Positions 32,222 to 56,158 are shown, counted from the first letter of the stretch. The stretch is DNA of 64,000 nucleotides from an uncultured delta proteobacterium (GCA_963745035.1 CAVUVW010000024.1:1-64000), one strand, 5' to 3'. Notes: generated from the sequence alone by a model not told the origin. Made by a program: numbers and translations.

Positions 32222-32373
32222 GTTCCAAACGTTCAAGACGTTCAACCGCTGCGCTCAGTTCAACCCTCTCCTTGATCCTCCCCCGCGTGCGCGGGGAAGA
32301 AAACTCTACTCTGGGCCGGCTGACGCTGGGGCTAAACGATTTGAACGGCTTGAACGTTTTGAACAACTTTAAC
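32222..32373. repeat. Intergenic inverted GTTCAA/TTGAAC element with a nested GC palindrome
   Basis: gttccaaac gttcaagac gttcaa ... ttgaacggc ttgaacgtt ttgaac; CCCCGCGTGCGCGGGG inside. Confidence 0.8.
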
Positions 32374-38200: not shown

Positions 38201-38719
38201 TTGCCGGTTATTACAAAGGAGCTTTCCTTGAAGATCAGACCCGCGGCTTTATTTAGCTTTTGCGCTCTCGTGTTTTTCTGTGTGTTCGTATATCTGGCGC
38301 AGGAGTGGCGGCTGCAAGCGCGTCTTTATCCGTTTGCGATCGGTATACCGATGCTGATCCTCGCAATCGTCCAAGTCATCTTGGACTTAAAAGGCGTCAC
38401 GGCGAAACAGTCGGCCGACGCCACGCCGATGGATTACCAGTTCACGAAAGACGTCGATCCGGTGACCGCCAGAAAAAGAGCCATCACGATGTTTGCCTGG
38501 CTCGTCGGGTTTTTCGTCGCCATATGGCTGCTAGGCTTTCCAATCGCCATCGGATTGATGATGTTCACCTACCTGAAGTTTCAGGGCGGGGAATCCTGGC
38601 TGTTGTCGGGCACGCTGACAATCATCGCCTGTCTTTTCTTCTACGGCCTGTTCGTCAGGTTGCTCCACCTGCCGTTCCCGGACGGTCTGCTCACGACCTG
38701 GCTGGGGTTGCACGGCTAG
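38201..38719 (+). CDS. tctB: TTT small membrane subunit
   Basis: 172 aa, 4-5 transmembrane segments, YPFAIG, LLGF, LF..LLHLPFPDG. Confidence 0.8.
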   Translation: MPVITKELSLKIRPAALFSFCALVFFCVFVYLAQEWRLQARLYPFAIGIPMLILAIVQVILDLKGVTAKQSADATPMDYQFTKDVDPVTARKRAITMFAWLVGFFVAIWLLGFPIAIGLMMFTYLKFQGGESWLLSGTLTIIACLFFYGLFVRLLHLPFPDGLLTTWLGLHG

Positions 38720-38847
38720 TTCGCTATCTCGAGCGTGCCGAGAGCTTTGGCCGCGGCGCGGCATTCATTTCATGATCCTGCATTGTCAAGCGAGCGGCTA
38801 ACGTTGCGCGGCTATTGCATGGTAGCTCTCGCAAGAAGGAGGAGCCC

Positions 38848-39913
38848 ATGAAAGCGCCAAGCCTGCCTAGACGGATCAGCTATCTCGCGTTTCTCACCCT
38901 ATTCCTCCTGACCCTTGGACCCGATCGCGTCCGCGCATGCGCAAGGCGAGGTATTTTATAACGGCAAGACGGTGCGCATCATCGTCGGCTTCACGCCGGG
39001 CGGCTTTTACGATCGCTGGGCAAGATTGTTGTCGCGCTACATGCCGAAATATATTCCGGGCAATCCCAACTTCCTCGTGCAAAACATGCCCGGCGCCAGC
39101 TCGGTGATCGCGGCGAACTATGTTTACAACCTCGCCAAGAGCGACGGCTTGACGTTGCTCGTGCCGATCAACAGTTTGTACCTCGACCAGGTCGTCGGCC
39201 GCAAAGAAGTGAAGTTCGATGTGCGGAAGTTCGACTTCATCGGCACCCAGGAAAAAGCCCCAACGATGCTTTACTTTCGCGCCGACAGCCCGTTCAAGAC
39301 TCTCGCCGACATCATTCAGGCCAAGGAAGCGCCGAAATGCGGCTCCACGGGAACGGCCAGCACCGGATATCTTGTCGCCCGATTACTCGACGAAGCTTTC
39401 AAAGCAAAACTCAACACCGTGACCGGCTATCAAGGCGGCAGCGAGATTGATGTCGCGGTGGAGCGCGGCGAGATCGTTTGTCGGGGCATGGATATTCCAC
39501 CGCACTTTGGCCGCGAGCCGTTCGATTCTTGGCACAAGCGCGGTTTTGACCGGCACATTCTTCAAGGCGGACCCAAGCGCGATCCGCGCATGCCGGAAAC
39601 CCCGACCCTGTTCGAGTTGATGGATCAATACAACTCACCCGAAGTGATGCGGCGCGTTACCCGCATCGTTCTCGCCAGCGGCGAGTTCGGCCGGCCGATG
39701 GTGGCCGGTCCGGGAACACCGCCGGAGCGGTTGAAACTCTTGCGCGAATCCTACGCGAAGGCGATGCGCGACCCGGGCTTGATCGAGGAAGCCAAAAAGG
39801 GCCAGATGGATATGGAATACACGTCCGGCGAAGATCTCCAATCGATGATGAAAGATCTCATGAACCAGCCCCGCGATGTCATGGATCGGGTGAAAAAAAT
39901 TCTCACTGAGTAG
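38848..39913 (+). CDS. tctC: TctC-family binding protein 1 (frameshift in leader)
   Basis: GFTPGGFYD, IPGNP, QNMPGA, AVERGE. Confidence 0.85.
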
Positions 39914-39970
39914 CGGATCGGTAGAAGGTGAAGACGTTTCACCACGGAGGCGCGAAGGACACGACGATTT

Positions 39971-39992
39971 CGTAGGGTGCGCTACGCGCACC
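39971..39992. repeat. GTAG-type REP palindrome
   Basis: cGTAGGGTGCGctaCGCGCACC. Confidence 0.55.
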
Positions 39993-40072
39993 GAGGAATG
40001 GGAAGCTTGGCGTGGAGCGCGGCACACGTTTTCTGAAGGCTGCTGCCGACACGCACGCGAAAGGAAGCTCAG

Positions 40073-41123
40073 ATGCTACGAGCAAGACACGAAAGTTATT
40101 TTGGTCGCCTGCATTGTCGCCTGGAGTTTGAACGGCGCCGCCAACCTTAGCGCCCAAAGCGAACCGTTTTACAAGGGCAAGACTGTTCGCGTGATCGTTG
40201 GCCTGTCACCGGGTGGCTTCTACGATCGCTGGGCGCGCTTACTCGCGCGCTTCATGCCACTTTACATGCCGGGAAATCCGAACTTCATCGTTCAAAACAT
40301 GGCCGGCGCGGGTTCGATGATCGCGATGAACCATGTTTTCGGCGTCGCCAAACCCGACGGACTCACCGTCGTCATGCCCAACTACGGCGTCTATCTCGAT
40401 CAAATCGCCGGGCGCAAAGAAGTCCGCTTCGATATCACCAAGGGCTACTTCATCGGCTCGCCGGAGAAAAGCGACGTCATTCTCTACGCGCGCGCCGATG
40501 CGCCGTTCAAATCCGTCCAGGACATGAGAAAACTGCCCGAGCCGCCCAAGTGCGGCGCCACCGGCACGGCCGGCGCCGATTACCTGATCGCGCGCGTGCT
40601 CGAGGATACACTCGGCATCAAGATCAACACGGTCCTGGGATACGCCGGCGGCAGTGAAATCGACATCGCCGTGGAAAAGGGCGAAGTTCAGTGCCGCGGC
40701 ATGACCATCGCTCCTCACTTCGGCCGCGAGCCCTTCGATAGCTGGCACAAAAAAGGGTTCGATCAACATATCCTGCAAACCTCCGAGAAGCGCGATGCGC
40801 GCACGGGCGACGTGCCGACCATTTACGAAATCTTCGATAAAGAAAATACCGCCGATGAGAGCCGGCGCGTAGCCGATGTGATTTTGCGCGGCGGCGATTT
40901 CGGCCGACCGATGATCGTCGCGCCGGGCACGCCCATGGACCGGGTGAATATACTTCGCGACGCGTACGTCAAATCTATGAATAATCCCGAGCTTCTGGCC
41001 GAAGCCAAGAAATGCCGCATGGACGTCGAGCCGGTCACCGGCGAGCAACTACAGGCATTGGCCAAGAGAGTCATGAATCAGCCTCCCGCCGTCCTCAAAC
41101 GCGTCAAAAAAATCCTTGAATAA
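40073..41123 (+). CDS. tctC: TctC-family binding protein 2 (frameshift in leader)
   Basis: GLSPGGFYD plus the same family motifs. Confidence 0.85.
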
Positions 41124-41183
41124 AGCTCCGCAATCTTCGGCGCCGTGATCCATACAGCGGCGCGAAATACAAAGGGAGAACAC

Positions 41184-42220
41184 ATGAGAGTTGCGATCTT
41201 AGCGCTAAGTCTAATCTTTGCCTGGGCTTCGCAGCTTCACGCCCAAGCCGCGCCATTTTATCAAGACAAGCAGATCCGCGTAGTCGTCGGCTTTACCACC
41301 GGCGGTTTTTACGATCGCTGGGCGCGCCTGCTGGCGCGCTACATGCCGAAATACATTCCGGGTAATCCCACTTTCATCGTGCAGAATATGCCCGGCGCCG
41401 GCTCGGTGGTCGCGGCCAATTACGTTTATAGCGTCGCCAAGCCGGACGGCTTGACGATCGGGTTTCCCAGCAGCGGACATCTATCTCGATCAGATCGTCG
41501 GCCGTCCGGAAGTAAAATTCGATTTGCGCAAGTTTGCCTGGATCGGCTCGCCGGTGATCCGAGCCGATGCTTTTCTATATGCGCGCCGATGCGCCCTACA
41601 AAAGCATCGCCGATATCAAGAACGCCAAAGAGCCGCCCAAATGCGGTTCCACTGGAACGGTCAGCACCGATTTCATTTTGGCGCGCATGTTGGAAGACAC
41701 CTTGCCGCCGTTGAAGATCAATACTGTTCTCGGCTATCCCGGCGGATCCGAGATCGATATCGCCGTGGAAAAAGGCGAAGTCATGTGCCGCGGCATGACC
41801 GCGTCGCCCTACTTCGGACGCGAGCCGTTCTTGAGTTGGCAAAAGAAGAACTTCGTTCGCGTCCTCCTTTATACCGGCGCGAAACGCGACGAAAGAATTC
41901 CCGACGTTCCGACCATCGCGGAGATCTTCGAGAAGGAAAAAGTCCCGGAGAACAGCCGCCGCGTCGCGCAAGTGATCCTCGCCGCCGAGTCTTTCGGACG
42001 GCCGATCATCGGCACGCCGGGCATTCCGGCGGACCGGGTCGCCATGCTGCGCCAAGCATTCGATCAATCGATGAAAGATCCCGAGCTGCTCGCTGAAACG
42101 AAGAAGCAGCGCATGGACGTCGATCCGACGAGCGGCGCGAGCCTGGAGAAACTCGCTCAGCAGATCTTGCAGCAGCCGCCGGAGGTTCTCGCGCGGGTCA
42201 AGAAAATTCTCAGCAATTAG
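41184..42220 (+). CDS. tctC: TctC-family binding protein 3 (frameshifted)
   Basis: GFTTGGFYD; three overlapping ORFs join. Confidence 0.82.
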
Positions 42221-42286
42221 TTGAAAGTACTCTTTTAAGTGGTAAAGTTCGTGCGAAAAATTCATTTTCAGGAGGTTAGAAACTCA

Positions 42287-43324
42287 ATGCACCGTTTGCT
42301 CGCAGCTTTGTTATTGCTGAGTTTTGATCACGGCGAGTCGGGCGAATGCCCAGACCCCGTTCTATCAGGGAAAGACGATTACGATCATCGTCGGCACCAA
42401 GGCCGGCGACGCCTATGACTTGTATCCGCGCATGCTCGCCGAGTTCATGCCGAAATACATACCCGGAAACCCGAACTTCATCATCCAGAATGTCCCCGGC
42501 GCCGCGTCAATGATCGCGGCCAATCAGGTCTACAATGTCGCCAAACCGGATGGCTTGACCATCGGCGCCATTTACCCGGCGCTTTACTTCGAGCAGCTCA
42601 CGAAAAAGCCCGAGGTGAAATTCGATTGGACCAAAGTTCGGCTGGGTCGGCAATCCGGTCACGTCGAACCATCTTTTGTACATGCGCTCGGATGCTCCTT
42701 ATAAGTCGATGGACGACATCAAGAACGCCTCGGCGGCGCCCAAGTGCGGCTCCAACGGCATTACTTCGACCGGTTACTATCTGCCGAAGCTGATGGAAGA
42801 AACTCTCGGCACGAAGTTCGATATCGTTTTGGGCTATCAATCCGGCCAGGACGTGGATCTCGCCGTGGAGCGCGGCGAGGTGGTATGCCGCGCTTTTACC
42901 ATCACCGCCTATTTTGCGCGCGAGCCGTTTATTTCGTGGCGCAAGCGCGGCTTCGTCAACACGCTGATGCAGAGCGGCGCCAAGCGCGACCCGCGGCTGA
43001 AAGACGCGCCGACGATCTACGAGCTGATGGACCGCTACAAAACCAACGCCGCCGGCAGAAGCCTTGGCGAAAGTGGTTTTGTCCGCCGGCGAATTCGGCC
43101 GTCCTTTGGTCACCCCTCCCGGCGTGCCCGCGGACCGCTTGAAAATTCTGCGCGACGCGTTCGACAAGTCGGTGAGCGATCCGGCGCTGTTGGCGGCTGC
43201 CGAAAAACGCCGCCTGGAAATGGATCCGGCGAGCGGCGCGGAGATTGAAGCATTGGCGAAGGAAGTCATGGCGGCGACCCCGGACGTCGTGCAGCGCATG
43301 GAAAAATTGTTGGGCGGAAAGTAA
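42287..43324 (+). CDS. tctC: TctC-family binding protein 4 (frameshifted)
   Basis: GTKAGDAYD; overlapping ORFs join. Confidence 0.82.
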
Positions 43325-43416
43325 ACAGCTAGCGCCGGCTATCCCTCGAGGTTGTTGCATGACGGCAGCCTTGAGGGATATGCTCCGGTCAAATTTCGGC
43401 GGGAAGGAGAAACTTT

Positions 43417-44443
43417 ATGATTCTGATTCTCGTCCTCGTGCTAACACTCGGGTGGAGCTCGGCTCTACTCGCGCAGACGCCCTTCTATCAGGGCAAGACC
43501 ATCAATATCATCGTCGGCACCAAAGCCGGCGACGTCTACGATCTCTATCCGCGCCTGCTAGCGGAATACATGCCCAAACATATACCGGGCAATCCCAACA
43601 TCATCGTGCAAAACGTCCCCGGCGCCGCTTCATTGATCGCCGCCAATCAAGTCTATAACGTCGCCAAACCGGACGGCTTGACCATCGGAGCCATTTATCC
43701 GGCGCTTTATTTCGATCAGTTGATCAAAAAACCGGAAGCAAAATACGACTGGGGAAAATTTCAGTGGATCGGCAGCCCGGTCAAATCGAATCATCTCCTT
43801 TATATGCGCGCCGACACGCCGTACAAGAGCGTTGACGACATCCGCAAGGCGACTACGGCGCCCAAGTGCGGCGCCACCGGTGTCGCCTCTACCGGATATT
43901 ACATGCCCAAGCTCATGGAGGAAGTGCTCGGCACCAAGTTCGATATCGTGTCCGGTTACGTGTCCGGCCAGGACATCGATCTCGCCGTCGAGCGCGGCGA
44001 GTTGCAGTGCCGGGCCTTCACCATCACCGCGTATCACGCCCGCGAGCCTTTCATTTCCTGGCGCAAGAAGAATTTTGTCAACGTTCTCATCCAAACCGGC
44101 ACCAAACGCGATCCGCGTCTCAAGGAATCTCCGACGATCTACGAGTCGATGGACCGCTACAAAGTCGGCGAAGCCGGACGCAGTCTCGCCAAAGTCATCC
44201 TGGCTTCGGGCGACTTCGGCCGCCCGCTCGTTTTCGCTCCGGGAGTTCCAGCCGACCGCGTGAAGATTTTGCGCGACGCGTTCGACAAGAACGGTTACTG
44301 AGGCAGCCTTCTTGGCGGAGGCGGAAAAGCGCCGGCTCGAGATCGATCCAACCCAGTGGGATGAAATGCAATCGCTCGCGAAAGACGTAATGGCGACCCC
44401 GCCGGACATCGTCGCGCGCATGCGAAAGCTGCTAGGCGAATAA
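43417..44443 (+). CDS. tctC: TctC-family binding protein 5 (frameshift near 44290)
   Basis: GTKAGDVYD. Confidence 0.85.
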
Positions 44444-44533
44444 TTCGCTCTGCGCTTAGCGCAGTCAAAATTTTGAACCCGAGCTTAGAGACAAACGTCG
44501 TCGGCTCGGAAAAGTCGGAAACCATCGCCGTTT

Positions 44534-45562
44534 ATGGCTCAACGCATCTTGGTCTTACTCCTCGCCCTGTTCTGGCCGCTTGACCTTCACGCCCAAGCGC
44601 CGTTTTACCAAGGCAAGACCATCCGGCTGGTCGCCGGGACGCCGGCCGGCAGCGTGTACGATCTCTACGCGCGCATGGTCGCTCAGTTCATGCCTAAACA
44701 TATTCCCGGCGCGCCCAACATCATCGTGCAGAACATGCCGGGCGTGGCCTCGATGGTTGCGGCCAACTACATCTACGAGGTCGCCAAGCCCGACGGGCTG
44801 ACCATCGGCTCGATCCAGCCGGCCCTTTATTTCGATCAGCTGGTCGGCCGCAAGGAAGCCAAGTTCGACTGGCAGAAATTTACCTGGATCGGCAACACGA
44901 CCGTGTCGCACCACCTCCTCTACATGCGCAGCGATACGCCGTACAAGACCATCGAAGACATCCGCAAAGCTTCGGTGCCGCCCAAGTGTGGCGCCGAGGG
45001 AACTGCATCATCTGCATACTATTTGCCGAAGCTGCTGGAAGAAACCATCGGCGCGAAGTTCAACGTCGTCACCGGCTACAACTCCGGCACGGATGTCGAC
45101 CTGGCCGTCGAACGCGGCGAGGTGCAATGCCGTGCGTTTACGATTGCCGCCTTCTTCGCGCGCGAACCGTTTCACACCTGGCGCAAAAAAGGATTCGTTC
45201 ACGTCGTCGTTCAGACCGGCAAAAAGCGCGATGCCAGCCTGCCCGACGTTCCCACCCTTCCCGAGCTCATGGAGAAGCACAAGACTGCCGACTCCGGCAA
45301 GCGCCTGGCGACGGTGGTTCTAGCTGCCAACGAGATTGGACGTCCTATCGTCGCCACGCCGGGAATTCCGGCGGATCGGGTAAAGATTCTTCGCGAGGCG
45401 TTTATGAAGGCGGTAAAGGATCCGGAACTCCTGGATGACGCCAAAAAGAAGAAGCTGGAATTGGATCCGGTGTCCGGCGAAGAGCTCGAAGCGCTGAGCA
45501 AAGAGATCATTGCCCAGCCGCCGGATGTAGTGGAGCGCATGAAAAAACTATTAGGCACATAG
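44534..45562 (+). CDS. tctC: TctC-family binding protein 6 (intact)
   Basis: GTPAGSVYD; 342 aa with signal peptide. Confidence 0.9.
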   Translation: MAQRILVLLLALFWPLDLHAQAPFYQGKTIRLVAGTPAGSVYDLYARMVAQFMPKHIPGAPNIIVQNMPGVASMVAANYIYEVAKPDGLTIGSIQPALYFDQLVGRKEAKFDWQKFTWIGNTTVSHHLLYMRSDTPYKTIEDIRKASVPPKCGAEGTASSAYYLPKLLEETIGAKFNVVTGYNSGTDVDLAVERGEVQCRAFTIAAFFAREPFHTWRKKGFVHVVVQTGKKRDASLPDVPTLPELMEKHKTADSGKRLATVVLAANEIGRPIVATPGIPADRVKILREAFMKAVKDPELLDDAKKKKLELDPVSGEELEALSKEIIAQPPDVVERMKKLLGT

Positions 45563-45595
45563 ACTCGATTCGAACACCATGCAAAGGGAGAACGT

Positions 45596-46634
45596 ATGAA
45601 GCAAAGCGTAATGTGGTTTCTGGTTTTGTTTGCCGGATGGGCTTCGAGCGCGGCGGCGCAGACGCCTTTTTACCAAGGCAAGACAATCACGATCATAGCG
45701 GCGCCAAGCCGGGCGACGTCTACGATCTCTACCCTCGTCTGGTCGCGGAGTTCATGCCGAAGCACATTCCCGGCAATCCAAACATCATCATTCAGAACGT
45801 CGCCGGCGCGGCAGGTTTGATCGGTACCAATCAGCTTTACAATATAGCCAAACCTGACGGGCTAACCTTCGGCGCGATTTACCCGCCGCTCTACTTCGAG
45901 CAGCTCGCCAAACGGCCCGAAGTAAAATTCGACTGGACCAAGTTCATCTGGATCGGTAGCACGGTAAGCTCCAACAGTCACATGTATATGCGCGCCGATA
46001 CGCCGTATAAAACCATCGAAGACGTCCGCAGCGCATCGACTCCGCCGAAATGCGGCGCAACGGGCGTAACATCATCCGCTTATTACATGCCAAAACTCTT
46101 GGAAGAGGCCATCGGCACCAAGTTCGAGGTTGTGCTCAGGTTATGTCGCCGGCTCGGATATCGATCTCGCCGTCGAGCGCGGCGAAGTTCAGTGCCGGGC
46201 GTTTACGATGAATGCATATCTTCGCGCGCGAGCCGTTCATCACTTGGCGCAAGAAAAATTTCGTGCGCGTGCTCTATCAGACCGGAAATAAGCGCGGATC
46301 CGCGCGCTCAAGGACGTGCCGCTGTTCAACGAACTTGATGGACAAGTACAAGACGCCGGAAAACGTCCGTCGATTAACCAAAGTCGTGGTAGCAGCGGAC
46401 GAGTTCGGCCGCCCGCTGGTATTCCCTCCCGGAGCGTCCCCGCCGATCGGGTCAAAATTATCCGTGACGCGTTCAACAAGACGATCAACGATCCCGCTCT
46501 GCTTGGCGGAAGCGGAAAAACGCCGGCTCGATATCGATCCGGCTACGGGCGAGGAACTCGATGCCTTAGCGAAGGAAGTCATGACCGCGCCTCCGGATGT
46601 CGTCGAGCGCGTGAAGAAACTGATCGGCATGTAA
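45596..46634 (+). CDS. tctC: TctC-family binding protein 7 (several frameshifts)
   Basis: GAKPGDVYD. Confidence 0.8.
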
Positions 46635-46645
46635 CGTACTGAGGA

Positions 46646-47731
46646 ATGACGATGGGCGTTCAAAAGTTCAAAGGTTCAAGCGTTCAAGGTTTTCGGACTC
46701 GTCTCCGTTCTGACCTTTGAACTTTTGAACCCCTTGAACCTTGAACGGGCGTCTGCCCAGACGCCCTACTACCAAGGCAAGCAAATCCGCCTCATCATCG
46801 GCTCGACTCCACGGCGGCGGCTACGATCTCTGGCCGCGGGCCGCGGCCCGTTATCTGACGAAGCACATTCCCGGCAATCCCGACATCGTGCGCGCAGAAC
46901 ATGCCCGGGGCCGGCGGCCATCGTCGCGGCGAATTATCTTTACGGTATCGCCAAGCCCGACGGCCTGACCATCGGCGCCTTCAATCCCGCGCTGTACTTC
47001 GACCAGCTCATCAAGCGGCGACGAAGTCAAATTCGACTGGCGCCAAAATCGCCTGGATCGGCTCGCCCGAGCAGAACGAGATCATCCATTTCATCCGCAC
47101 CGACGCCCCGTTCAAAGCATCGACGATCTGCGCAACGCCAAGGAGCCGCCGAAATGCGGCAGCTCGGGGACCGGCACCACCGGGCATTACATGCCGCGCC
47201 TGCTGGAAGAAGTCATCGGCATCAAAACTCACATCGTCAGCGGTTATCAGGGCGGCTCCGAAATCGATCTCGCCATCGAAAGAAACGAGGTCGTCTGCTG
47301 GTCGCCGTTGATCGCCACTTATTTCGGCCGAGAGCCTTACAAGCGGTGGCAGAAACCGGTTTCACCCGGGTGGTGCTGCAAACCGGCAGCAAACGCGACC
47401 CGCGATTGAAAGAGGTGCCCACTCTTCCGGAGTTGATGCAGCAATACAAAACTCCCGACGCGGGTAAACGTCTGGCGACTGGTGATTCTCACCGCCGTGA
47501 CCATGGGCCGCCCCATCGCCGCGCCGCCGGGAACACCACCGGACCGAGCTCAAAATCCTGCGCGAAGCGTATGCCAAGGCGTTGGCCGACCCTGAGTTAC
47601 TCGCCGAAGCCGACAAGCGCAACTGGGACGTCGAGCCCCTGAGCGGCGAAGAGCTCGAATCCCGCGCCAAGGAAGTGATCCACCAACCGGCCGAGGTGAT
47701 CGAGAAAATGAAATGGGTGCTTGGAAAATGA
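46646..47731 (+). CDS. tctC: TctC-family binding protein 8 (many frameshifts; hairpin leader)
   Basis: GGGYDLW, WSPLIATYFGREPY. Confidence 0.75.
46658..46746. repeat. GTTCAA x4 / TTGAAC x3-4 palindromic leader element; copies at 47810-47898, 48912-49000, 49999-50078, 51092-51180, 52201-52289, 53416-53503
   Basis: Read directly from the sequence at the 5' end of tctC 8-14. Confidence 0.92.
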
Positions 47732-47774
47732 CCCTGCCAAGATCTATTTCGTAGAGCAAAGACGGAGGTGCTCC

Positions 47775-48879
47775 GTGAAGCGATGCCCGCGCCGCGCGCT
47801 CCTCTCCCCGTTCAATCGTTCAAAAGTTCAACCGTTCAAAGTTCTCGGACTCTTGATTTTCTCCGTCGTTGAACTGTTGAACCCTTTGAACGTTGAACCT
47901 TCGTTGGCCCAAGCCAATTTCTACCAAGGCAAGACTCTCACCATCATCGTCGGCACCAAGGCGGGCGACGTCTACGATCTCTATCCGCGCCTGCTTGCCG
48001 AGTTCATGCCCAAGTACATTCCCGGAAATCCGAATATCATCATTCAAAACGTGCCCGGCGCGGCGTCGCTGATCGCGGCGAATCAAGTTTACAACGTTGC
48101 GAAACCCGACGGGCTCACCTTGGCCGCGATCTACCCTTCTCTTTATTTCGATCAACTCGTCAAAAAGCCGGAAGCGAAGTTCGATTGGAGCAAATTTGGC
48201 TGGATCGGCAGTCCGGTCGGTTCCAATCACATGATGTACATGCGCACCGACACGCCGTACAAGACCGTCGAGGACGTGCGCGCCGCCGCTCGCCCGCCGA
48301 AATGCGGCACCAGCGGAGTGACATCGACCGGCTATTACATTCCCAAGCTGCTCGAAGAAGCGATCGGCGCCAAATTCGAGATCGTCACCGGCTACCAGGC
48401 GGGTCAGGATGTCGATCTCGCCGTCGAGCGCGGCGAAGTCGTCTGCCGCTCGTTCACGATCACGGCGTTTCATGCTCGCGAACCGTACTTCACCTGGCGC
48501 AAGAACAACTTCGTTCGCGTGCTCTATCAAACCGGCAAGAAGCGCGACTCGCGCCTTAAAGACGTGCCGACCATGCACGAGCTGATGGACAAGTACAAAA
48601 CGCCGGAGAACGTGAAGCAGCTTGCCAAAGTCATTCTCATCGCCAGCGACCTCGGCCGACCGATCGTCGCGCCGCCGTCGGTGCCGGCGGATCGATCTGA
48701 AAATTCTGCGCGACGCCTTCAATAAGACCGTCAGCGATCCGCAATTTTTATCCGAAGCGGAGCGGCGCAGGCTCGAGATCGATCCGTCCACGGCCGAAGA
48801 AATCGACGCCCTGGCGAAAGAAGCGATGGTCACGCCGCCGGAAGTCGTCGAGCGCATGAAGAAAGTTCTCGGCATGTAA
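47775..48879 (+). CDS. tctC: TctC-family binding protein 9 (frameshift near 48695; hairpin leader)
   Basis: GTKAGDVYD; GGAGG RBS before GTG. Confidence 0.85.
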
Positions 48880-48899
48880 CAGCAAGCGAGGGATCGCAA

Positions 48900-49984
48900 A
48901 TGACGAAACTCGTTCAAAAGTTCAAAGGTTCAAGCGTTCAAGGTTCTCGGACTCTTGATTTTCTCTGTCGTTGAACTGTTGAACCCTTTGAACGTTGAAC
49001 AGGCATTCAGCGCAGGCGAACTTCTACCAAGGCAAAACCCTCACGATGGTCGTCGCTTCGACCACCGGCGGCGGCTACGATCTCTGGGCGCGGCTCACGG
49101 CGCGTCATATCGTCAAGTATATCCCGGGAAACCCGTCGATCGTGGTGCAGAACATGCCCGGCGCCGGCAACATCATCGGCGCCAACTACGTGTACGGCGT
49201 CGCCAAACCCGACGGCTTGACCCTCGGCGCCGTCAATCCCGCGCTTTATTTCGACCAGCTCGTGGGCAGATCCGAAGTGAAATTCGACTGGGCGAAATTC
49301 AACTGGATCGGCTCGCCGGAAAAAAACGACGTCGTTTCCTACATGCGCGCCGACCAGCCGCTCAAGACCATCGACGATTGGCGCAACGCAAAGGAGCCGC
49401 CCAAATGCGGCAGCACGGGCACGGGCAGCACCGGCCACTATATTCCGCGCCTTCTGGAAGAAACCCTCGGCGTCAAGACTCAGATCGTGAGCGGCTATCC
49501 AGGCGCCTCGGATATCGAGCTGGCCATCGAGCGCGGCGAGGTCTTTTGCTGGTCGCCGCTACTCGCCACGTACTTTGGCAGGGAGCCTTACCGGCGCTGG
49601 CACAAGTCCGGCTACGTGCGCGTCCTGATGCAAACCGGCGGCAAGCGCGATGGGCGATTGAAGGACACTCCAACACTCAGCGAGCTCATGCAGCAATACA
49701 AAAGTTCCGACGCGGGCCGGCGCCTGGCGAAAGTCATTTTGACTGCAGCGAGCCTTGGCCGGCCCATCGGTACCGCGCCAGCCACACCGCCCGACCGCGT
49801 GAAGATTTTGCGCGAAGCTTATGCCAAGGCCATCGCCGATCCGGAATTACTCGCCGAAGCAGCCAGGCAAGGCTGGGAAGTCGATCCAACCACCGGGGAG
49901 GAACTGCAGGCCTTGTCCAAAGAAGTCATGGCGCAGCCGCGCGAGATCATCGAGCGCATGAAGTGGGTGCTCGGACGGGAATGA
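48900..49984 (+). CDS. tctC: TctC-family binding protein 10 (frameshifts in leader; hairpin leader)
   Basis: ASTTGGGYD, WSPLLATYFGREPY. Confidence 0.85.
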
Positions 49985-49987
49985 CAA

Positions 49988-51058
49988 ATGCGAGGGCCGT
50001 TCAAAAGTTCAACCGTTCAAACGTTCAAGGCTGTCGGAATCGTTTTCATTCTGACCCTTGAACTTTTGAACCTTGAACGGGCATTCGCGCAAGCGAATTT
50101 TTATCAGGGCAAGACCATTTCCATGATCGTCGGCACCAAGGCCGGCGACGCGTATGATCTTTACCCGCGCCTCCTGGCCGAGTTTTTGCCGAAACACATT
50201 CCCGGCAATCCCACCATCATCATTCAGAATGTCCCCGGAGCGGCGTCACTGGTCGCTGCAAATCAGGTCTACAACATTGCCAAGCCGGACGGCTTGACCC
50301 TTGGCGCGATCTACCCTGCGCTTTACTTGGACCAGCTCGTGAAAAGACCGGAGGTCAAATACGACTGGAACAAGTTCGGCTTGATCGGGAGTCCGGTGAG
50401 CTCCAATCACATGATGTACATGCGCGCCGACGCTCCCTACAAAACACTCGATGACGTGCGCTCCGCCGGCCAGCCGCCAAAATGCGGCGCCAGTGGCATC
50501 GCGTCTACAGGATATTACATTCCCAAGCTTCTCGAAGAAGCGATCGGCGCCAAGTTCGACATCGTCGCCGGCTATCAAGGCGGACAGGATATCGAGCTCG
50601 CGGTGGAGCGCGGCGAATTGGTCTGTCGATCGTTCACCATTACCACCTTTCATTCCCGGGAGCCCTTTTTTACCTGGCGCAAGAAAAGCTTCGTGCGCGT
50701 GCTCTACCAAACCGGCAACAAGCGCGATGGGCGCCTCAAAGACGTGCCGACGATCTATGAGATTATGGAGCGCTACAAGACGCCGGAGCCGGTGAAAAAC
50801 CTCGCGAAGGTGGTTCTCATCGCGAGTGACTTGGGACGGCCGATCGTTGCGCCGCCGGGAGTGGCTCCCGAGCGTTTGAAGATATTGCGCGATGCCTTCG
50901 ACAAAACCGTGAGCGACCCGGCTTTCTTGGTCGAGGCCGAGCGGCGCAAGCTCGAGATATCTCCATCGCAATGGGACGAAATACAAACCTTGGTCAAAGA
51001 AGCGCTGGCTACCCCGCCGGAAGTCGTCGAGAGAATGAAAAAGATTTTAGGAATGTAA
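49988..51058 (+). CDS. tctC: TctC-family binding protein 11 (intact; hairpin leader)
   Basis: GTKAGDAYD. Confidence 0.9.
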   Translation: MRGPFKSSTVQTFKAVGIVFILTLELLNLERAFAQANFYQGKTISMIVGTKAGDAYDLYPRLLAEFLPKHIPGNPTIIIQNVPGAASLVAANQVYNIAKPDGLTLGAIYPALYLDQLVKRPEVKYDWNKFGLIGSPVSSNHMMYMRADAPYKTLDDVRSAGQPPKCGASGIASTGYYIPKLLEEAIGAKFDIVAGYQGGQDIELAVERGELVCRSFTITTFHSREPFFTWRKKSFVRVLYQTGNKRDGRLKDVPTIYEIMERYKTPEPVKNLAKVVLIASDLGRPIVAPPGVAPERLKILRDAFDKTVSDPAFLVEAERRKLEISPSQWDEIQTLVKEALATPPEVVERMKKILGM

Positions 51059-51080
51059 ATGGCCGGTGGAGAGGATCAAA

Positions 51081-52163
51081 ATGATGAACTGGTTCAAAAG
51101 TTCAACCGTTCAAACGTTCAACGGATTGAGCGTGCTTCTTTTGTTCGTCGTTGAACTGTTGAACCCTTTGAACGTTGAACGGGCATTCGCGCAAGCGAAC
51201 TTTTATCAAGGCAAGACCGTGCGCATCGTCGTCGGCAACTTGCCCGGCGACACCCACGATCTTTTCGCCCGCGCTTACTCGCGCAGCATGGGCAAGCATA
51301 TTCCCGGCAATCCGGCGATCCTGGTGCAGAACATGCCCGGCGCGGGCGGCATGATCGCCGCCAATCACGTCTACAACGTCGCCAAGCCCGACGGCCTGAC
51401 TTTGGGTTCCCCTTCTCCGGCGCTTTACTATGCGCAGCTCGTCGGCAGCAAGGAAGCCAAATTCGATTGGACCAAGTTCAATTTTATCGGCGCGCCGGAG
51501 CGCAACGGCCATTTGTTGTTCATGCGCTCGGATTCCCCTTACAAGACCCTCGACGACATCCGCAATGCCAAAGAGGCGCCGCGCTGCAGCGCCACCGGCG
51601 TCGGCACCAGCGGCCACGACGTGCCCAAGCTGCTCGAAGAGATGGTCGGTTTGAAGTTCCGCCTGATCACCGGCTACCCCGGCGGCGCCGAGATGGATCT
51701 GGCAATCGAGCGCGGCGAGGCCATATGCCGCGCCATCACCATCGCGGCGTTTTTCGCGCGCGAGCCATTTATCACTTGGCACAAGAACGGCTTCGTCCGC
51801 ATCATGCTGCAAACTTCGCGGCAGAGAAATCCCAGAATTCCGGATGTGCCGACGCTCTTCGAATTAATGGAGCAGTACAAGACACCCGAGATCAAGCGCC
51901 GCCAGATGCTTGTCTATCTGGGTGTCGGCGGCTTCGGTGCCTGGCCGATCCTGGCGACTCCCGGCATCCCCGCGGATCGCGTAAAAATCCTGCGTGAAGC
52001 CTTCGCAAAAACGATGAAGGATCCTGACTTTCTCGGCGAAGCGAAAAAGAGCGGGTGGGAAATCCGACCCACCAGCGGCGAAGACCTCCAGGCCCTTGCT
52101 AAAGAAGTTATCGATCAACCGCCGGAAGTCGTCGAATGGCTAAAAAAATTGTTGGGCAAATAG
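51081..52163 (+). CDS. tctC: TctC-family binding protein 12 (intact; hairpin leader)
   Basis: GNLPGDTHD. Confidence 0.9.
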   Translation: MMNWFKSSTVQTFNGLSVLLLFVVELLNPLNVERAFAQANFYQGKTVRIVVGNLPGDTHDLFARAYSRSMGKHIPGNPAILVQNMPGAGGMIAANHVYNVAKPDGLTLGSPSPALYYAQLVGSKEAKFDWTKFNFIGAPERNGHLLFMRSDSPYKTLDDIRNAKEAPRCSATGVGTSGHDVPKLLEEMVGLKFRLITGYPGGAEMDLAIERGEAICRAITIAAFFAREPFITWHKNGFVRIMLQTSRQRNPRIPDVPTLFELMEQYKTPEIKRRQMLVYLGVGGFGAWPILATPGIPADRVKILREAFAKTMKDPDFLGEAKKSGWEIRPTSGEDLQALAKEVIDQPPEVVEWLKKLLGK

Positions 52164-52183
52164 CTTTGAAGGTGAGGAGGAGC

Positions 52184-53272
52184 ATGATTTCAACGCATTG
52201 GTTCAAACGTTCAACCGTTCAAACGTTCAACGTTCTCGGACTGTTCATTTTCTCCGTCGTTGAACTATTGAACCCTTTGAACCTTGAACAGGCATTCGCG
52301 CAAGCGCCTTTTTACCAAGGCAAGACGATTCGCATCGTCGTCGGCTACCAGCCCGGCGACAGTCACGACTTATGGGCGCGAACCTATATCCGCTTTCTCG
52401 GCAAACATATTCCCGGCAATCCCGATTTCGTCGTGCAAAATATGCCCGGCGCCGGTTCGATGATCGCCGCTAACCACGTGTTCAACTTGACTAAGCCCGA
52501 CGGGCTCACTCTCGGCTCCATCGGTGGAGCGCTCTTCATGGCGCAATTGACGGGGCGCAAGGAAGTTCAATTCGACTGGCCGAAGTATTCCTGGATCATG
52601 ACCCCTGACCGGGGCGGCCATCTTTTGTACATGCGCACGGACGCGCCGTATAAGACTTTCGAAGATCTGCGCCAAACCAACGATCCGCCGAAATGCTCCG
52701 CCACTGGCGTCGGCAGCACCGGCTACGACTTGCCGAAACTGCTCGAGGAGGCGCTCGGCTTCAAGTTTCGCGTCATCAGCGGCTACCCCGGCGGCGCCGA
52801 TCAAGATCTGGCTATGGAACGCGGCGAAGTTCACTGCCGCGCCTTTATCATCGAATCTTTTTTTCAGCGCGAGCCGTTCCCGACCTGGATGAAGAAGAAC
52901 TTTGTGCGCGTCTGGCTCCAGACCGAGCGCAAGCGCCATCCTAAGCTGCCCAACGTGCCGACGATCTTCGAGTTGATGGATCAATACAAAGTCTCCGATT
53001 CGAAGCGGCGCTTGGTTGAAACCTATCTCGGCATCTGGGGATTTGGCTCCCGGCCGATTGTCGCGACGCCCGGCGTGCCGGCAGACCGTCTGCAGATCCT
53101 GCGCGATGCCTTCAACAAAATGTTCAAAGATCCGGAATTTCAAGAAGAGCTGAGAAAACGCAATTGGGAGGTGGAGTTCGTCGCCGGCGAAGAACTTCAA
53201 TCGCTCGCCAAAGATGTCGTCAATCAGCCGCCCGATGTAGCGGCCGGGCTGAAACGCGTTTTGAGCCAGTGA
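52184..53272 (+). CDS. tctC: TctC-family binding protein 13 (intact; hairpin leader)
   Basis: GYQPGDSHD; GAGGAGG RBS. Confidence 0.9.
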   Translation: MISTHWFKRSTVQTFNVLGLFIFSVVELLNPLNLEQAFAQAPFYQGKTIRIVVGYQPGDSHDLWARTYIRFLGKHIPGNPDFVVQNMPGAGSMIAANHVFNLTKPDGLTLGSIGGALFMAQLTGRKEVQFDWPKYSWIMTPDRGGHLLYMRTDAPYKTFEDLRQTNDPPKCSATGVGSTGYDLPKLLEEALGFKFRVISGYPGGADQDLAMERGEVHCRAFIIESFFQREPFPTWMKKNFVRVWLQTERKRHPKLPNVPTIFELMDQYKVSDSKRRLVETYLGIWGFGSRPIVATPGVPADRLQILRDAFNKMFKDPEFQEELRKRNWEVEFVAGEELQSLAKDVVNQPPDVAAGLKRVLSQ

Positions 53273-53379
53273 CTGATTATTGCCTGCGTTCGGGGATTGC
53301 CACGTCTGTGTTGTGAGACACCGCAGCGGCAAGGAAGTCGACAGAGTGTCATGCGAGCGCCGGAAAGCGAGGTCCTTTT

Positions 53380-54486
53380 ATGATGTACCGCTCGGAAATA
53401 CGGCGACTTCTTCTAGTCAAAAGATCCAAGGCTCAAGTGTTCAAGACCCTCTCTTTCGTCGCCCTTCTGACGTTTGAACTATTGAACCCCTTGAATCTTG
53501 AACAGGCGTCTGCACAGACGCCCTTCTATCAAGGCAAAACCATTCGCGTGATCGTCGGCTACCAGCCCGGCGACAACCACGATCAATGGGCGCGCACCTA
53601 CGTGCGCTTCATGGGCAAGTATATTCCCGGCCATCCCGACTTCGTCGTTCAAAACATGCCGGGCGCCGGCTCCATGATCGCGGCCAATCACGTCTACAAC
53701 ATGACCAAGCCGGACGGGCTCACTCTGGGCTCCTTCGGCGGCGCGCTGATCATGGCGCAATTGACCGGGCGCAAAGAAGTGCAATTCGATTGGCCGAAGT
53801 ACTCATGGATCGGCACGCCGTATCGCGCCGGCCATCTGCTGTTCATGCGCAGCGATGCGCCCTACAAATCCATGGACCAACTGCGCCAGGCCAGCGATCC
53901 GCCGCGTTGTTCCGCGACCGGAGTGGGCAGTACCGGCTACGATATCCCGCGTCTCCTCGAAGATGCGTTGGGACTGAAATTCAAAGTGATCAGCGGCTAT
54001 CCCGGCGGCGCCGATCAAGACCTCGCGATGGAACGGGGTGAGGTCCATTGCCGCGCGATTACCATCGACGGATTTTTGGGCCGCGAGCCTTTCATCACCT
54101 GGCTCAAAAAAGGATTCGTGCGCGTCTGGCTGCAAACCGAAAAACAGCGTAATCCAAAGATACCCGAGGTGCCGACGATTTTTGAATTGATGGATCAGTT
54201 CAAGATCCCGGATGCAAAGCGCCGACTGGTGAATACCTATTTGGGTTTGTGGGGCTTTGGCTCGATGCCGATCGTCGCCTCGCCGGGTACGCCGCCCGAT
54301 CGAGTCAAAGTCTTGCGCGAAGCGTATGCGAAGATCTTCACCGATGCCGAGTTCATAGAAGAGACCACCAAAAAAAATTGGGAGCCGAGGCCGGTAAACG
54401 GTGAGGAGTTGGAAGGACTAGCCAAGGAAGTCGTCAACCAGCCGCCCGAAGTCAGCAGCGCACTGAAACGAATTTTGAGTCAGTAG
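53380..54486 (+). CDS. tctC: TctC-family binding protein 14 (intact; degenerate hairpin leader)
   Basis: GYQPGDNHD. Confidence 0.9.
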   Translation: MMYRSEIRRLLLVKRSKAQVFKTLSFVALLTFELLNPLNLEQASAQTPFYQGKTIRVIVGYQPGDNHDQWARTYVRFMGKYIPGHPDFVVQNMPGAGSMIAANHVYNMTKPDGLTLGSFGGALIMAQLTGRKEVQFDWPKYSWIGTPYRAGHLLFMRSDAPYKSMDQLRQASDPPRCSATGVGSTGYDIPRLLEDALGLKFKVISGYPGGADQDLAMERGEVHCRAITIDGFLGREPFITWLKKGFVRVWLQTEKQRNPKIPEVPTIFELMDQFKIPDAKRRLVNTYLGLWGFGSMPIVASPGTPPDRVKVLREAYAKIFTDAEFIEETTKKNWEPRPVNGEELEGLAKEVVNQPPEVSSALKRILSQ

Positions 54487-54658
54487 CCCGCGCGCTGAAA
54501 AAGATTCGGCTGCTCGCCTTGACCATCATAGAGCGCAGGAAGATTCGCGCAAGAAACAAGCCAAAAACTATCACATTTTTCGCAAAAATGAGAGTTGACC
54601 GTCACGCCAATATAAGATATTGAGCATGCTCCGATAATTGTGGGCGTAGGAGATCGTC

Positions 54659-56158
54659 ATGCTTGAGGCATTTATCTCGGGTTTTTGGCAAGTACTGGCA
54701 TGGCCGGCTTTTGGCTACATGCTTCTCGGCATCGCCATTGGTTTTTGGGTTGGTCTTCTGCCCGGCATCGGCGGTTTGGCCACGTTGGCGCTGATGCTGC
54801 CGTTCTCTTACAACATCAAAGACCCGATATCGGCGTTCGCCTTTTTGCTCGGCATGCTTGCCGTAACCAGCACCACCGGCGATTTGAGTTCCATACTCTT
54901 CGGCATCCCCGGCGAGGGGTCCTCAGCCGCATTGATACTTGACGGCTATCCCATGACGAAAAATGGCGAAGCCGGCCGCGCATTGGGCGCCGCGATCACG
55001 GCCTCCGTTGTAGGCGCAATCATCGGCGCTGTATCATTGGCTTTATCGATACCGATTATGCGTCCGCTGGTACTCCTCTTCGGCTCGCCGGAGCTGTTTA
55101 TCATAGCGATCATGGGCATCACGTTTATTGGCACCCTCGCCGGAGCGTCCCTGATCAAGGGTCTTCTGGCAGGCGGCCTCGGCTTGATGTTGGCGGCCAT
55201 CGGCGTCGATCCTCAGACCGGGTCGCTCCGCTATACCTTCGGCTCGCTTTATCTGTGGGACCGTCTGGACCTTATTCCAGTCGTCGTCGGCCTATTCGCC
55301 ATTCCCGAAATCGTTGACTTGTCGGTTCGCGGCACCAGCATCGCGGGCCACAAGCCGGATAAATTAACCGGAGTGATGGAAGGAGTCAAAGACACCTTTC
55401 GCCATTTCTGGCTGGTCGTGCGCTGCAGCTTGATCGGCGTCTACTTCGGCGTGCTTCCGGTGTTGGGCGCCAACGTGGCGCAATGGATCTCCTACGCGCA
55501 CGCGGTGCAAGGCTTGAAAGACAAGTCGCGCGCTGGAAAAGGCGCTATCGAGGGGCTGCTCGGCCCCGGCGCGGCCAACAATTCAACCCGCGGCGGCGAT
55601 TTGATTCCAACCCTCGCCTTCGGTATTCCCGGCAGCGGCGCCATGGCATTGCTGCTCGGCGCGATGTTGATCGTCGGCCTCAACCCCGGACCCGAAATGC
55701 TCAAGTCGCGGCTCGATGTAACGTTTTCCATGGTCTGGGTGTTGATCATCGCCAATCTGATCGTTGCAGCGCTGTGCTTTTTGATTCTGAATCATCTTGC
55801 GGCATTGACGTTTATCCGCGGCACCTTACTGATTCCATTTTTGATGTTTCTGGTCTTCATCGGCTCGTTTACCGCCAACAACGATCTCAACGACATCATC
55901 AGCACGTTGATCTTCGGCTTTATCGGCTTTTGCATGGTCAAGTTCGGTTGGCCGCGCCCGCCCTTGATCCTCGGACTCACCCTCGGCAAGATCGCGGAAA
56001 ATTACCTGTGGATCTCGACCGCCGCCTACGGCGCAAGATGGCTCACGTTTCCTACGGTGGTCGGTCTCATTGCGCTGACCATCTTTACGGTGGCCTACCC
56101 CACGATCAAAGAGCGCATGGGTCGAGCCAAATACGAGCGCCCGGAAGACGCTGTCTAA
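54659..56158 (+). CDS. tctA: TTT large permease subunit
   Basis: GLLPGIG, ILFGIPG, LDGYPM...G.AGRALG, AANN...G..IPTLAFGIPG. Confidence 0.95.
   Translation: MLEAFISGFWQVLAWPAFGYMLLGIAIGFWVGLLPGIGGLATLALMLPFSYNIKDPISAFAFLLGMLAVTSTTGDLSSILFGIPGEGSSAALILDGYPMTKNGEAGRALGAAITASVVGAIIGAVSLALSIPIMRPLVLLFGSPELFIIAIMGITFIGTLAGASLIKGLLAGGLGLMLAAIGVDPQTGSLRYTFGSLYLWDRLDLIPVVVGLFAIPEIVDLSVRGTSIAGHKPDKLTGVMEGVKDTFRHFWLVVRCSLIGVYFGVLPVLGANVAQWISYAHAVQGLKDKSRAGKGAIEGLLGPGAANNSTRGGDLIPTLAFGIPGSGAMALLLGAMLIVGLNPGPEMLKSRLDVTFSMVWVLIIANLIVAALCFLILNHLAALTFIRGTLLIPFLMFLVFIGSFTANNDLNDIISTLIFGFIGFCMVKFGWPRPPLILGLTLGKIAENYLWISTAAYGARWLTFPTVVGLIALTIFTVAYPTIKERMGRAKYERPEDAV

Follow-up and report, generated by a model that had tools for sequence, protein, structure and literature searches.

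A GTTCAA palindromic repeat read in frame as the predicted signal peptide of tandem tctC genes in an uncultured bacterium

A stretch of 64,000 nucleotides from an uncultured delta proteobacterium (GCA_963745035.1, CAVUVW010000024.1:1-64000; referred to here as the window) contains a run of fourteen tctC genes, the last seven of which open with an inverted DNA element composed of GTTCAA units, a loop and TTGAAC units. To judge from its sequence, the element is translated as the export signal of the TctC proteins, and its hexamers are at the same time held constant at the nucleotide level. The explanation that we consider probable is that a hairpin repeat placed behind stop codons was domesticated, being absorbed by the next gene as its signal peptide while still working as a nucleic-acid element. 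The genome holding the window (7.43 Mb, 58% G+C, 28 contigs; the window is contig C24) has 136 TctC genes by rough gene calls. In the window, the order given by Pfam is tctB, the tctC copies and then tctA (Table 1), and all nine tctC copies that were scanned match the TctC/Bug periplasmic binding protein family PF03401, with 28 to 70 bits against a cut-off of 27.

With up to one mismatch allowed, the window contains 26 occurrences of GTTCAANNGTTCAA, where 0.29 would be expected (the largest number in 100 shuffles was 3), and each of them sits at the 5' end of one of the last seven tctC genes (tctC 8 to 14). Six of the elements, those of tctC 8 to 13, have four exact GTTCAA units at 8-bp spacing, a 29-nt loop, and a right arm of four TTGAAC units spaced by 8, 9 and 7 bp, except that the copy starting at 49999 has only three. 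The seventh is decayed, with one exact unit left in a degenerate left arm and three in the right arm. Read in frame, the element gives FKxSxVQxF(K/N), a hydrophobic decapeptide from the loop, and ELLNPLN(L/V)E; AxAQ comes next, and the mature part then opens with the conserved (N/P)FYQGKT. The leaders of tctC 1 to 7 are ordinary and contain 0-1 hexamers each. A first-pass annotation of the window had described the palindrome at the start of these seven consecutive genes, which span 46652-54486, the ordinary leaders upstream and a related free element at 32222-32373; all three descriptions were confirmed, and the free element is an intergenic version with 9-bp spacing.

The further statement that the element is always read in the same frame holds, as assembled, for five of the seven genes, which have an ATG or GTG in the leader frame, and fails for tctC 8, whose ATG at 46652 is one base out, and for tctC 10. 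For tctC 8, contigs from two public short-read runs are without one base at 46654, which places the ATG in frame; the same contigs differ from the assembly by several single-base deletions inside the gene, which suggests assembly indels or a strain difference as the source of the frame break. The mismatch in tctC 10 may reflect either an indel error or a broken leader. Single-base frame breaks were seen in tctC 3, 4, 7, 8, 9 and 10, and several more in the genome G019 (locus L024).

The proposal that the element forms the signal peptide was supported from several sides. Among 32 leaders from eight loci, chosen by their right-arm peptide, 28 have an upstream in-frame start (27 ATG, one GTG), and 21 of these 28 are preceded by a loosely defined Shine-Dalgarno (SD)-like motif; the net charge of the n-region ranges from 0 to +6. 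Loops were compared in 35 paired elements, 31 at tctC genes and four free. Those at tctC genes measure 29 nt (24 elements), 32 nt (six) or, in one frameshifted copy, 30 nt, and the frame is kept because only 29 or 32 nt are used; the free loops measure 21, 21, 35 and 38 nt, and the same frame is interrupted in them by stop codons. Translated in the coding frame, the loops have a mean hydropathy of +2.04; the two remaining frames average +0.05 and -0.55, and the free loops -0.35. T occupies the second codon position in 206 of 285 loop codons. A rule-based reading finds the start, the basic n-region, the hydrophobic h-region and the small-x-small motif expected of a Sec-type signal, the h-region of which normally has about 7-15 residues. 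The leaders are therefore read here as predicted export signals, by which the proteins would be exported and then cleaved.

The arms themselves differ between coding and free forms. From the sequence itself, (GTTCAANN)n is stop-free in every sense frame unless the spacer is TA, and (TTGAACNN)n at strict 8-bp spacing encounters TGA in each frame. The coding form has an extra base in the middle spacer of the right arm, read as part of a CCN proline codon, and because this spacer is one base longer the in-frame TGA of TTGAAC arrays is avoided. Free-form right arms are spaced 8,8,7 or 8,8,8, in contrast to the 8,9,7 of the coding form, which occurs five times in the genome, always within the window.

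The hexamers are also constrained as DNA or RNA. Fifty-seven tctC 5' ends were located by the motif of the mature N-terminus, and the 33 with an element-type peptide were used to examine codon choice. In the left arm, serine is TCA in 28/28 cases (5% in genome usage), valine GTT in 28/28 (13%) and glutamine CAA in 28/28 (35%); the further hexamer codons are TTG for leucine in 60/62 (20%), GAA for glutamate in 62/62 (46%) and AAC for asparagine in 61/62, and phenylalanine within hexamers is TTC in 56/56. In the same sequences, the conserved mature codons that flank the element vary freely: phenylalanine is TTC 20 times and TTT 10 times, tyrosine TAT 13 and TAC 20 times, lysine AAG 17 and AAA 16 times, and threonine uses four different codons. 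The first-pass annotation had proposed examining synonymous sites for preserved pairing, and the hexamer codons indeed never follow the free synonymous variation of the adjacent mature codons. Concerted evolution alone is insufficient to explain this, because the spacers inside the arms vary, with a consensus frequency of about 0.5-0.7 at six of the eleven spacer positions. Since the hexamers are frozen at synonymous sites while their neighbours vary, they are constrained as nucleic acid as well as protein.

As RNA, the window leaders are predicted to fold into hairpins of -31 to -38 kcal/mol (z -3.5 to -6.2), the one of tctC 14 being weaker (-23 kcal/mol, z -2.6); the same comparison gave z -0.2 and -1.6 for two ordinary leaders. 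The predicted stem is a string of four 6-bp helices with unpaired spacers between them, and the idea that a long mRNA hairpin would lie just after each start codon thus finds a strong counterpart in the folding model. A search of the region 46000-54000 with Rfam 15 gave no match at the gathering score and only three sub-threshold chance hits.

A scan of the whole genome, proposed in the first-pass annotation, showed that the repeat is a real family and mostly intergenic. There are 196 arrays of at least three exact units, of which 131 are purely 9-bp spaced and 21 are spaced 8,8,8. By a rough gene caller, 163 of the 196 are intergenic, and ten of the 33 that overlap gene calls are arms of the window elements. 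Arrays oriented as GTTCAA have a gene stop on their 5' side in 118 of 184 cases, at a median of 12 nt and within 30 nt in 82, and the distances on their 3' side are long. Only one orientation is present at 166 of 232 array loci, and the bias of orientation relative to transcription is no more than moderate (45 vs 28; 16 vs 6). Inverted pairs of forward and reverse hexamer arrays within 200 nt number 48, giving the terminal inverted repeats typical of a miniature inverted-repeat transposable element (MITE). The GTTCAA family is not specific to tctC, because post-stop arrays are at most weakly enriched after TctC genes (5/90, vs 2.1% of genes). The leader peptide, when searched for in this genome, matched the seven window genes only. 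As with Rickettsia palindromic elements (RPE), the repeat is both intergenic (163 arrays) and translated in frame, in the tctC leaders and in two other genes.

One of these two genes encodes a molybdopterin-binding dehydrogenase (G000:C15:253238-253267, L126), in which a four-unit GTTCAA array reads RFKSSKVQQFN near the junction of two MoCoBD domains, an arrangement conserved in two species (also locus L018 of G018). The other encodes a VWA-domain protein, in which a 9-bp-spaced array is read as RSNRSKRSSRE (G000:C13:834875-834898, L127). Other periodic hexamer arrays are abundant (e.g. just upstream of position 344563 in G000:C21). They include TGGAGT at 8 bp with 95 arrays, ACGAAG at 9 bp, and ATCCTC, AAAATC, AGGCAA and CGTGAG at 7 bp, and they are dense in the region 1.70-1.80 Mb of G000:C13. 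The 9-bp unit GTTCAANNC resembles the tRNA T-loop consensus, and no claim is drawn from this.

The first-pass annotation had called the repeat mobile, and this was not borne out. No GTTCAA arrays lie within 900 bp of the Y1 transposase genes at the four examined of five Pfam Y1_Tnp matches, and no pair of arrays was found around anything of obvious transposase size, in a survey that did not scan the genes in between for families. At two orthologous intergenic sites, compared without the G005 locus, a hairpin stands right after the stop codon in 6/9 and 8/8 related species; only the hexamers are conserved, and unit numbers, spacers and loops differ between species. The three species without the GTTCAA hairpin have a GTAG...CTAC hairpin at the same place and not an empty site. 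In those orthologues of G000:C9:36881 in which the GTTCAA hairpin is missing (L139, L143, L144), this intergenic site carries an array of the type GGCAACAGGCA together with a G+C-rich GTAG...CTAC hairpin, similar to repetitive extragenic palindromic (REP) sequences. The mobility of a MITE was thus not seen, the orthologous sites being occupied and no autonomous partner appearing, in a survey that did not search systematically for target duplications. Nor does the repeat behave as a REP or REPIN, having no arrays by the four Y1 transposase genes examined and no GTAG tag on its arms. From these alignments, the free copies look like an old, selected stem-loop position and not like recent insertions.

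The four-unit left-arm pattern was found in 19 of 24 genomes of the same genus (18/23 without G005), with many matches about 1.1 kb apart, and in none of 16 genomes from other families of the order; a reversed-pattern control gave no match anywhere. The coding-type right arm (8,9,7) has 63 matches in 15 of 30 other genomes of the genus, and none in 400 other genomes sampled from the phylum. Syntenic tctC arrays of G018, G019 and G004 have the same in-frame leaders, and at least 36 element leaders were found in eight genomes. Records with the same leaders carry titles such as 'Candidatus Binatia bacterium' and 'uncultured delta proteobacterium'; some tctC-bearing records under other titles (Verrucomicrobiia, Limnocylindrales) are probably mislabelled relatives. 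A phmmer search with a 48-residue leader against 1.84 billion representative sequences returned 34 hits. Among the 19 scanned with Pfam, TctC was recognized in five at E values up to 0.01 (three above the cut-off), and 11, mostly fragments of 106-180 aa, gave no family; all five hit sequences that were read continue into the TctC-type mature start. The other three of the 19 (P0001, P0018 and P0031) are long surface-repeat proteins matched internally and were rejected as leaders. On this evidence, the element leader is confined to TctC proteins.

The full pattern also occurs outside the genus, in records titled Tepidisphaeraceae, Phycisphaerales, Fluviicola, Ferruginibacter, Flavisolibacter, Caldilineaceae, Syntrophobacter(aceae), Vicinamibacterales and others, and it is intergenic in all 26 such loci whose flanks were read. 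Over 41 outside loci, an open reading frame (ORF) of at least 80 codons ends within 60 nt upstream of 27 of 58 arrays, at a median of 6 nt, as against 14% of random positions. Inverted (GTTCAA-N2)n arrays were noted in Planctomycetota, Bacteroidota, Chloroflexota, Acidobacteriota and Desulfobacterota (L035, L045, L071, L078 and others), and the cross-phylum arrays usually start 0-14 nt past a stop codon.

The history of the leaders was followed in trees. A first tree was built from the mature parts of 42 paralogues, taken from 166 high-scoring segment pairs (HSPs) with a filter of at least 250 aa and at least 44% identity, which excluded tctC 8 and other frameshifted copies. Element bearers are polyphyletic in it, falling in three places mixed with non-bearers, and the approximately unbiased (AU) test rejects a single bearer clade (lnL difference 159, p 1e-8). 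In a second tree with orthologues added (81 rows after dropping eight partial rows), the leader state needs at least seven changes, five of which are forced by strongly supported branches. Several genes are mosaics. While tctC 2 has an ordinary leader in the window, its G018 orthologue has an element leader: beginning some 45 nt inside the mature part, the two genes share 90-100% identity, and the upstream part of the orthologue is 74-95% like its own neighbour and 34-44% like tctC 2. Likewise, tctC 12 and 13 are each 0.90 alike to their own G018 orthologue in the mature part, but their loops are exchanged, with values of 0.90 and 0.86 to the other gene and 0.52 and 0.66 to the orthologue's own. 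Because orthologues differ in leader or loop, the leaders have spread by recombination between neighbours, and the breakpoints lie in or near the element arms. The term cassette, used in the first-pass annotation, is therefore apt locally, for exchange between tandem neighbours, and inapt in so far as the leader is found on TctC proteins alone.

The closest paralogue of tctC 12 lies outside the array (G000:C11:189470-189540; L128 470-540) and has the ordinary leader VRSKAIQALALLLLSLAATGPVWGQA. The underlying DNA, ATTCAAGCGTTAGC, resembles the remains of a left arm whose right-hand partner has disappeared. Species differ in how many genes tctB-(tctC)n-tctA contains and in their order (window 38201-56158 compared with L013, G018), the G018 array having one extra element-bearing copy and gene 9 at another position. 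These differences are consistent with unequal crossing-over.

Table 1. Features of the tctC region of the window and the free family member.
Feature	Position	Strand	Description	Basis or context
tctB	38201..38719	+		Pfam
tctC 1-7	38915..46634	+	Ordinary leaders; several frameshifted as assembled	Pfam, leader reading
tctC 8	46652..47731	+	ATG one base out of leader frame as assembled; further frameshifts in body	
Element of tctC 8	46658..46746	+	Four GTTCAA at 8 bp, 29-nt loop, four TTGAAC at 8,9,7	
tctC 9	47775..48879	+	GTG start after GGAGG; assembly frame change near 48695	
Element of tctC 9	47810..47898	+		
tctC 10	48900..49984	+	ATG, hydrophobic frame and mature frame all differ as assembled	
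Element of tctC 10	48912..49000	+		
tctC 11	49988..51058	+	ATG 3 nt past tctC 10 stop	
Element of tctC 11	49999..50078	+	Three right-arm units, reads ELLNLE	
tctC 12	51081..52163	+		
Element of tctC 12	51092..51180	+		
tctC 13	52184..53272	+	ATG after GAGGAGGAG	
Element of tctC 13	52201..52289	+		
tctC 14	53380..54486	+		
Decayed element of tctC 14	53431..53503	+	One exact left and three exact right units; hydrophobic core and ELLNPLNLE readable	
tctA	54659..56158	+		
Free family member	32222..32373	.	Intergenic; 9-bp-spaced arms, G+C-rich inner hairpin	Between two minus-strand genes

The domestication that we favour would have proceeded as follows. GTTCAA arrays, often as inverted pairs, would have occupied intergenic DNA a few bases past stop codons, as they do in the genus and, in similar form, in other phyla, and in the packed tctC array the hairpin downstream of one gene would have been taken into the reading frame of the next, which has its start codon past the upstream stop and ahead of the left arm. 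The basic n-region would then come from the left arm and the h-region from the loop, and the right arm would supply the ELLNPLN(L/V)E segment before the native AxA cleavage region. The coding form differs from the free form in a loop fixed at 29 or 32 nt, in the enrichment of T at the second codon positions of the loop, and in the longer middle spacer of the right arm. Leaders would move between neighbouring paralogues by homologous recombination through identical arms and conserved flanks, and not by transposition. Since the element is under both peptide and nucleic-acid constraint, it probably keeps its original role. We infer that this role would be that of an RNA stem-loop, formed in vivo where the upstream cistron ends and the next begins. 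It would influence the stability of the mRNA or the way it is processed, or else link termination to initiation, and a GTTCAA-specific factor may take part.

Several points weigh against this interpretation. As assembled, an in-frame start is absent from two of the seven window genes and from four of the 32 leaders overall. A rough script of our own produced both the gene calls and the SD motifs. Between the h-region and AxA there are 12-15 residues, including two glutamates, which is unusual for a Sec signal, the c-region of which is normally short (3-7 residues). The hexamer freeze is not absolute: all eight units are exact in 24 of 36 leaders and 258 of 288 units are exact overall, with at least one decayed unit in 12 of the 36, and the tctC 14 leader is still predicted to read as a signal with its left arm degraded. 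Loci were first found by the left-arm pattern, and the right-arm test alone is free of ascertainment bias. As the arms are invariant, no covariation could be demonstrated for the stem. The RNA evidence consists of metatranscriptome contigs over parts of gene bodies only; among the public-run contigs matched to the region, which at 90% likeness or more are mostly from relatives, none from RNA libraries was seen to run across a leader, and every public run contained less than half of the words that were sampled from 46500-49200. Finally, the trees are quick LG+G4 searches.

Other explanations account for part of the data. Were the element merely non-coding, a structure of the 5' untranslated region or intergenic space with the true starts in or after the right arm, one would understand that right-arm TTG codons open the longest ORFs of tctC 8 and 10 as assembled and that free elements occupy just such a post-stop position. 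However, a periplasmic binding protein, TctC, would then be left with no signal peptide; only one frame of the loops is hydrophobic, their lengths differ by 3 nt, in-frame starts lie upstream in 28 of 32 leaders, and the frame problem of tctC 8 is gone in short-read contigs, which makes this reading hardly credible. It is also quite unlikely that a single ancestral tctC gained the element and was multiplied by plain tandem duplication, the hexamers being kept by peptide selection only. The bearers are indeed all adjacent and of one architecture, and some pairs are sister genes (13/14, 9/11), but a single clade is rejected by the AU test cited above, element-less paralogues nest among the bearers (C11_189534, tctC 5), orthologues differ in leader type or loop, and in the hexamers the synonymous sites are fixed on rare codons next to codons that vary. 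None of the three outcomes that the first-pass annotation had named as refuting its interpretation was obtained.

A separate insertion of an active MITE with a ready-made signal-peptide frame before each gene would agree with the dispersal of the family, with the arrays in frame inside two unrelated genes, and with the in-frame insertions already known for MITEs and RPE (PMC2229807, PMC10969869). It is nonetheless improbable, considering that the Y1 transposase genes and array pairs surveyed gave no sign of a mobile unit within the limits stated above, that different species have free copies at matching orthologous sites, where spacers and loops have drifted, that the coding form (8,9,7 with a 29/32-nt loop) is nowhere found outside tctC leaders, and that the exchanged tracts include flanking gene sequence. 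We give a similarly small chance to the arms being DNA sites, whether as operators in tandem, to which a GTTCAA-binding regulator would attach, or as recombination sites of an integron-like kind by which the tctC array would have been assembled. Invariant hexamers with variable, non-complementary spacers, the frequency of unpaired arrays (166/232 loci with one orientation), the moderate orientation bias and breakpoints in or near the arms would all suit such sites. The strong polarity of the arrays, which begin about 12 nt past stops in the sense orientation, does not; the replacement of the array by a GTAG...CTAC hairpin at one orthologous site suggests that the stem-loop matters, and a spacing of 8-9 bp would set successive sites on different faces of B-DNA.

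A wider possibility, tentative and in our view rather doubtful, is that GTTCAA arrays are an unrecognised post-stop cis-element, read in a sequence-specific way in several phyla, and an overlapping code in this genus; a conserved factor may recognize them, or the segmented stem-loop may be acted upon by the ribosome or by the machinery of RNA decay. If so, one 90-nt stretch would end the upstream message, gate the next initiation and encode the export signal of that next protein, which would account for the intolerance of synonymous change. Under the domestication that we prefer, the tctC leaders are an unusually clean natural case of one sequence acting at once as nucleic-acid signal and as functional peptide module, and the frozen synonymous sites of the hexamers beside freely varying ones provide an internal control. 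Intergenic repeats would thus be able to supply whole signal peptides, and leaders to be shuffled between tandem paralogues in a transporter family that has expanded. A handle on whatever reads the arrays is offered by the invariant GTTCAA hexamer, found 0-14 nt past stop codons in unrelated phyla. In annotation, caution is advisable at the 5' ends of genes of this kind and with ORFs that are called across the arrays.

The repeat shares features with several known systems. REP sequences and bacterial interspersed mosaic elements (BIME) form stem-loops after stops in operons, such as malE-malF of Escherichia coli, and are considered to protect the upstream mRNA and thereby to set relative expression. 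GTTCAA arrays are likewise intergenic stem-loops directly past stops, but unlike REP/BIME they have neither a GTAG or CGTC tag nor, at the Y1 transposase genes examined, an association with REP-associated tyrosine transposases (RAYT), and here the downstream cistron translates the stem. The short tandemly repeated repetitive (STRR) sequences of cyanobacteria are intergenic arrays of 7-9-bp units, and this genome similarly has several families of short-unit arrays (TGGAGT at 8 bp, AGGCAA and CGTGAG at 7 bp); GTTCAA arrays differ from STRR in fixing six of 8-9 positions, in often being paired in inversion and in directly following stops. An integron attC site, accompanied by an adjacent integrase and attI, marks the 3' end of promoterless cassettes of unrelated genes, to which tctC 'cassettes', all of one family, do not correspond.

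Palindromic repeats in frame within genes are already known, as described for RPE, enterobacterial repetitive intergenic consensus (ERIC) and Correia elements (PMC2229807, PMC10969869). In the accounts given there, RPE, ERIC and the 107-bp form of Correia are, like the present repeat, dispersed palindromes that are both intergenic and in frame and give a long stem-loop in the transcript (PMC2229807, PMC10969869). The tctC repeat differs from RPE and MITEs in that it consists of a 6-nt unit at 8-9 bp periodicity with no shared sequence of about 100-150 bp, forms the whole export signal in many paralogues of one family across a genus, and has frozen synonymous sites with no sign of transposition. 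Our literature search found no report joining RPE with signal peptides, and nothing relevant on GTTCAA/TTGAAC repeats, on TctC repeats of Binatia or on MITE signal peptides. Nevertheless, the opinion in the first-pass annotation that no case of a repeat forming an export signal was known proved too strong, since a partial precedent exists in the Yersinia YPAL repeat, which in the description of Delihas (2008, PMC2229807) partly forms the predicted signal peptide of YPO1552. YPAL/RU-2 and the present element have in common that a palindromic repeat, read in a hydrophobic frame, provides part or all of the signal peptide predicted for an exported protein (PMC2229807). As that paper presents it, YPO1552 is a single hypothetical gene whose signal is 'partially formed' by the repeat (PMC2229807), whereas the tctC case comprises at least 36 leaders in eight genomes, a known periplasmic family, dual constraint and exchange between paralogues. 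Supplementary lists of the RPE and YPAL papers may hold further examples; what is new here is that the repeat supplies the whole signal, that it does so systematically in a known periplasmic protein family across a genus, that a dual constraint on its sequence can be demonstrated, and that the leaders are shuffled between paralogues.

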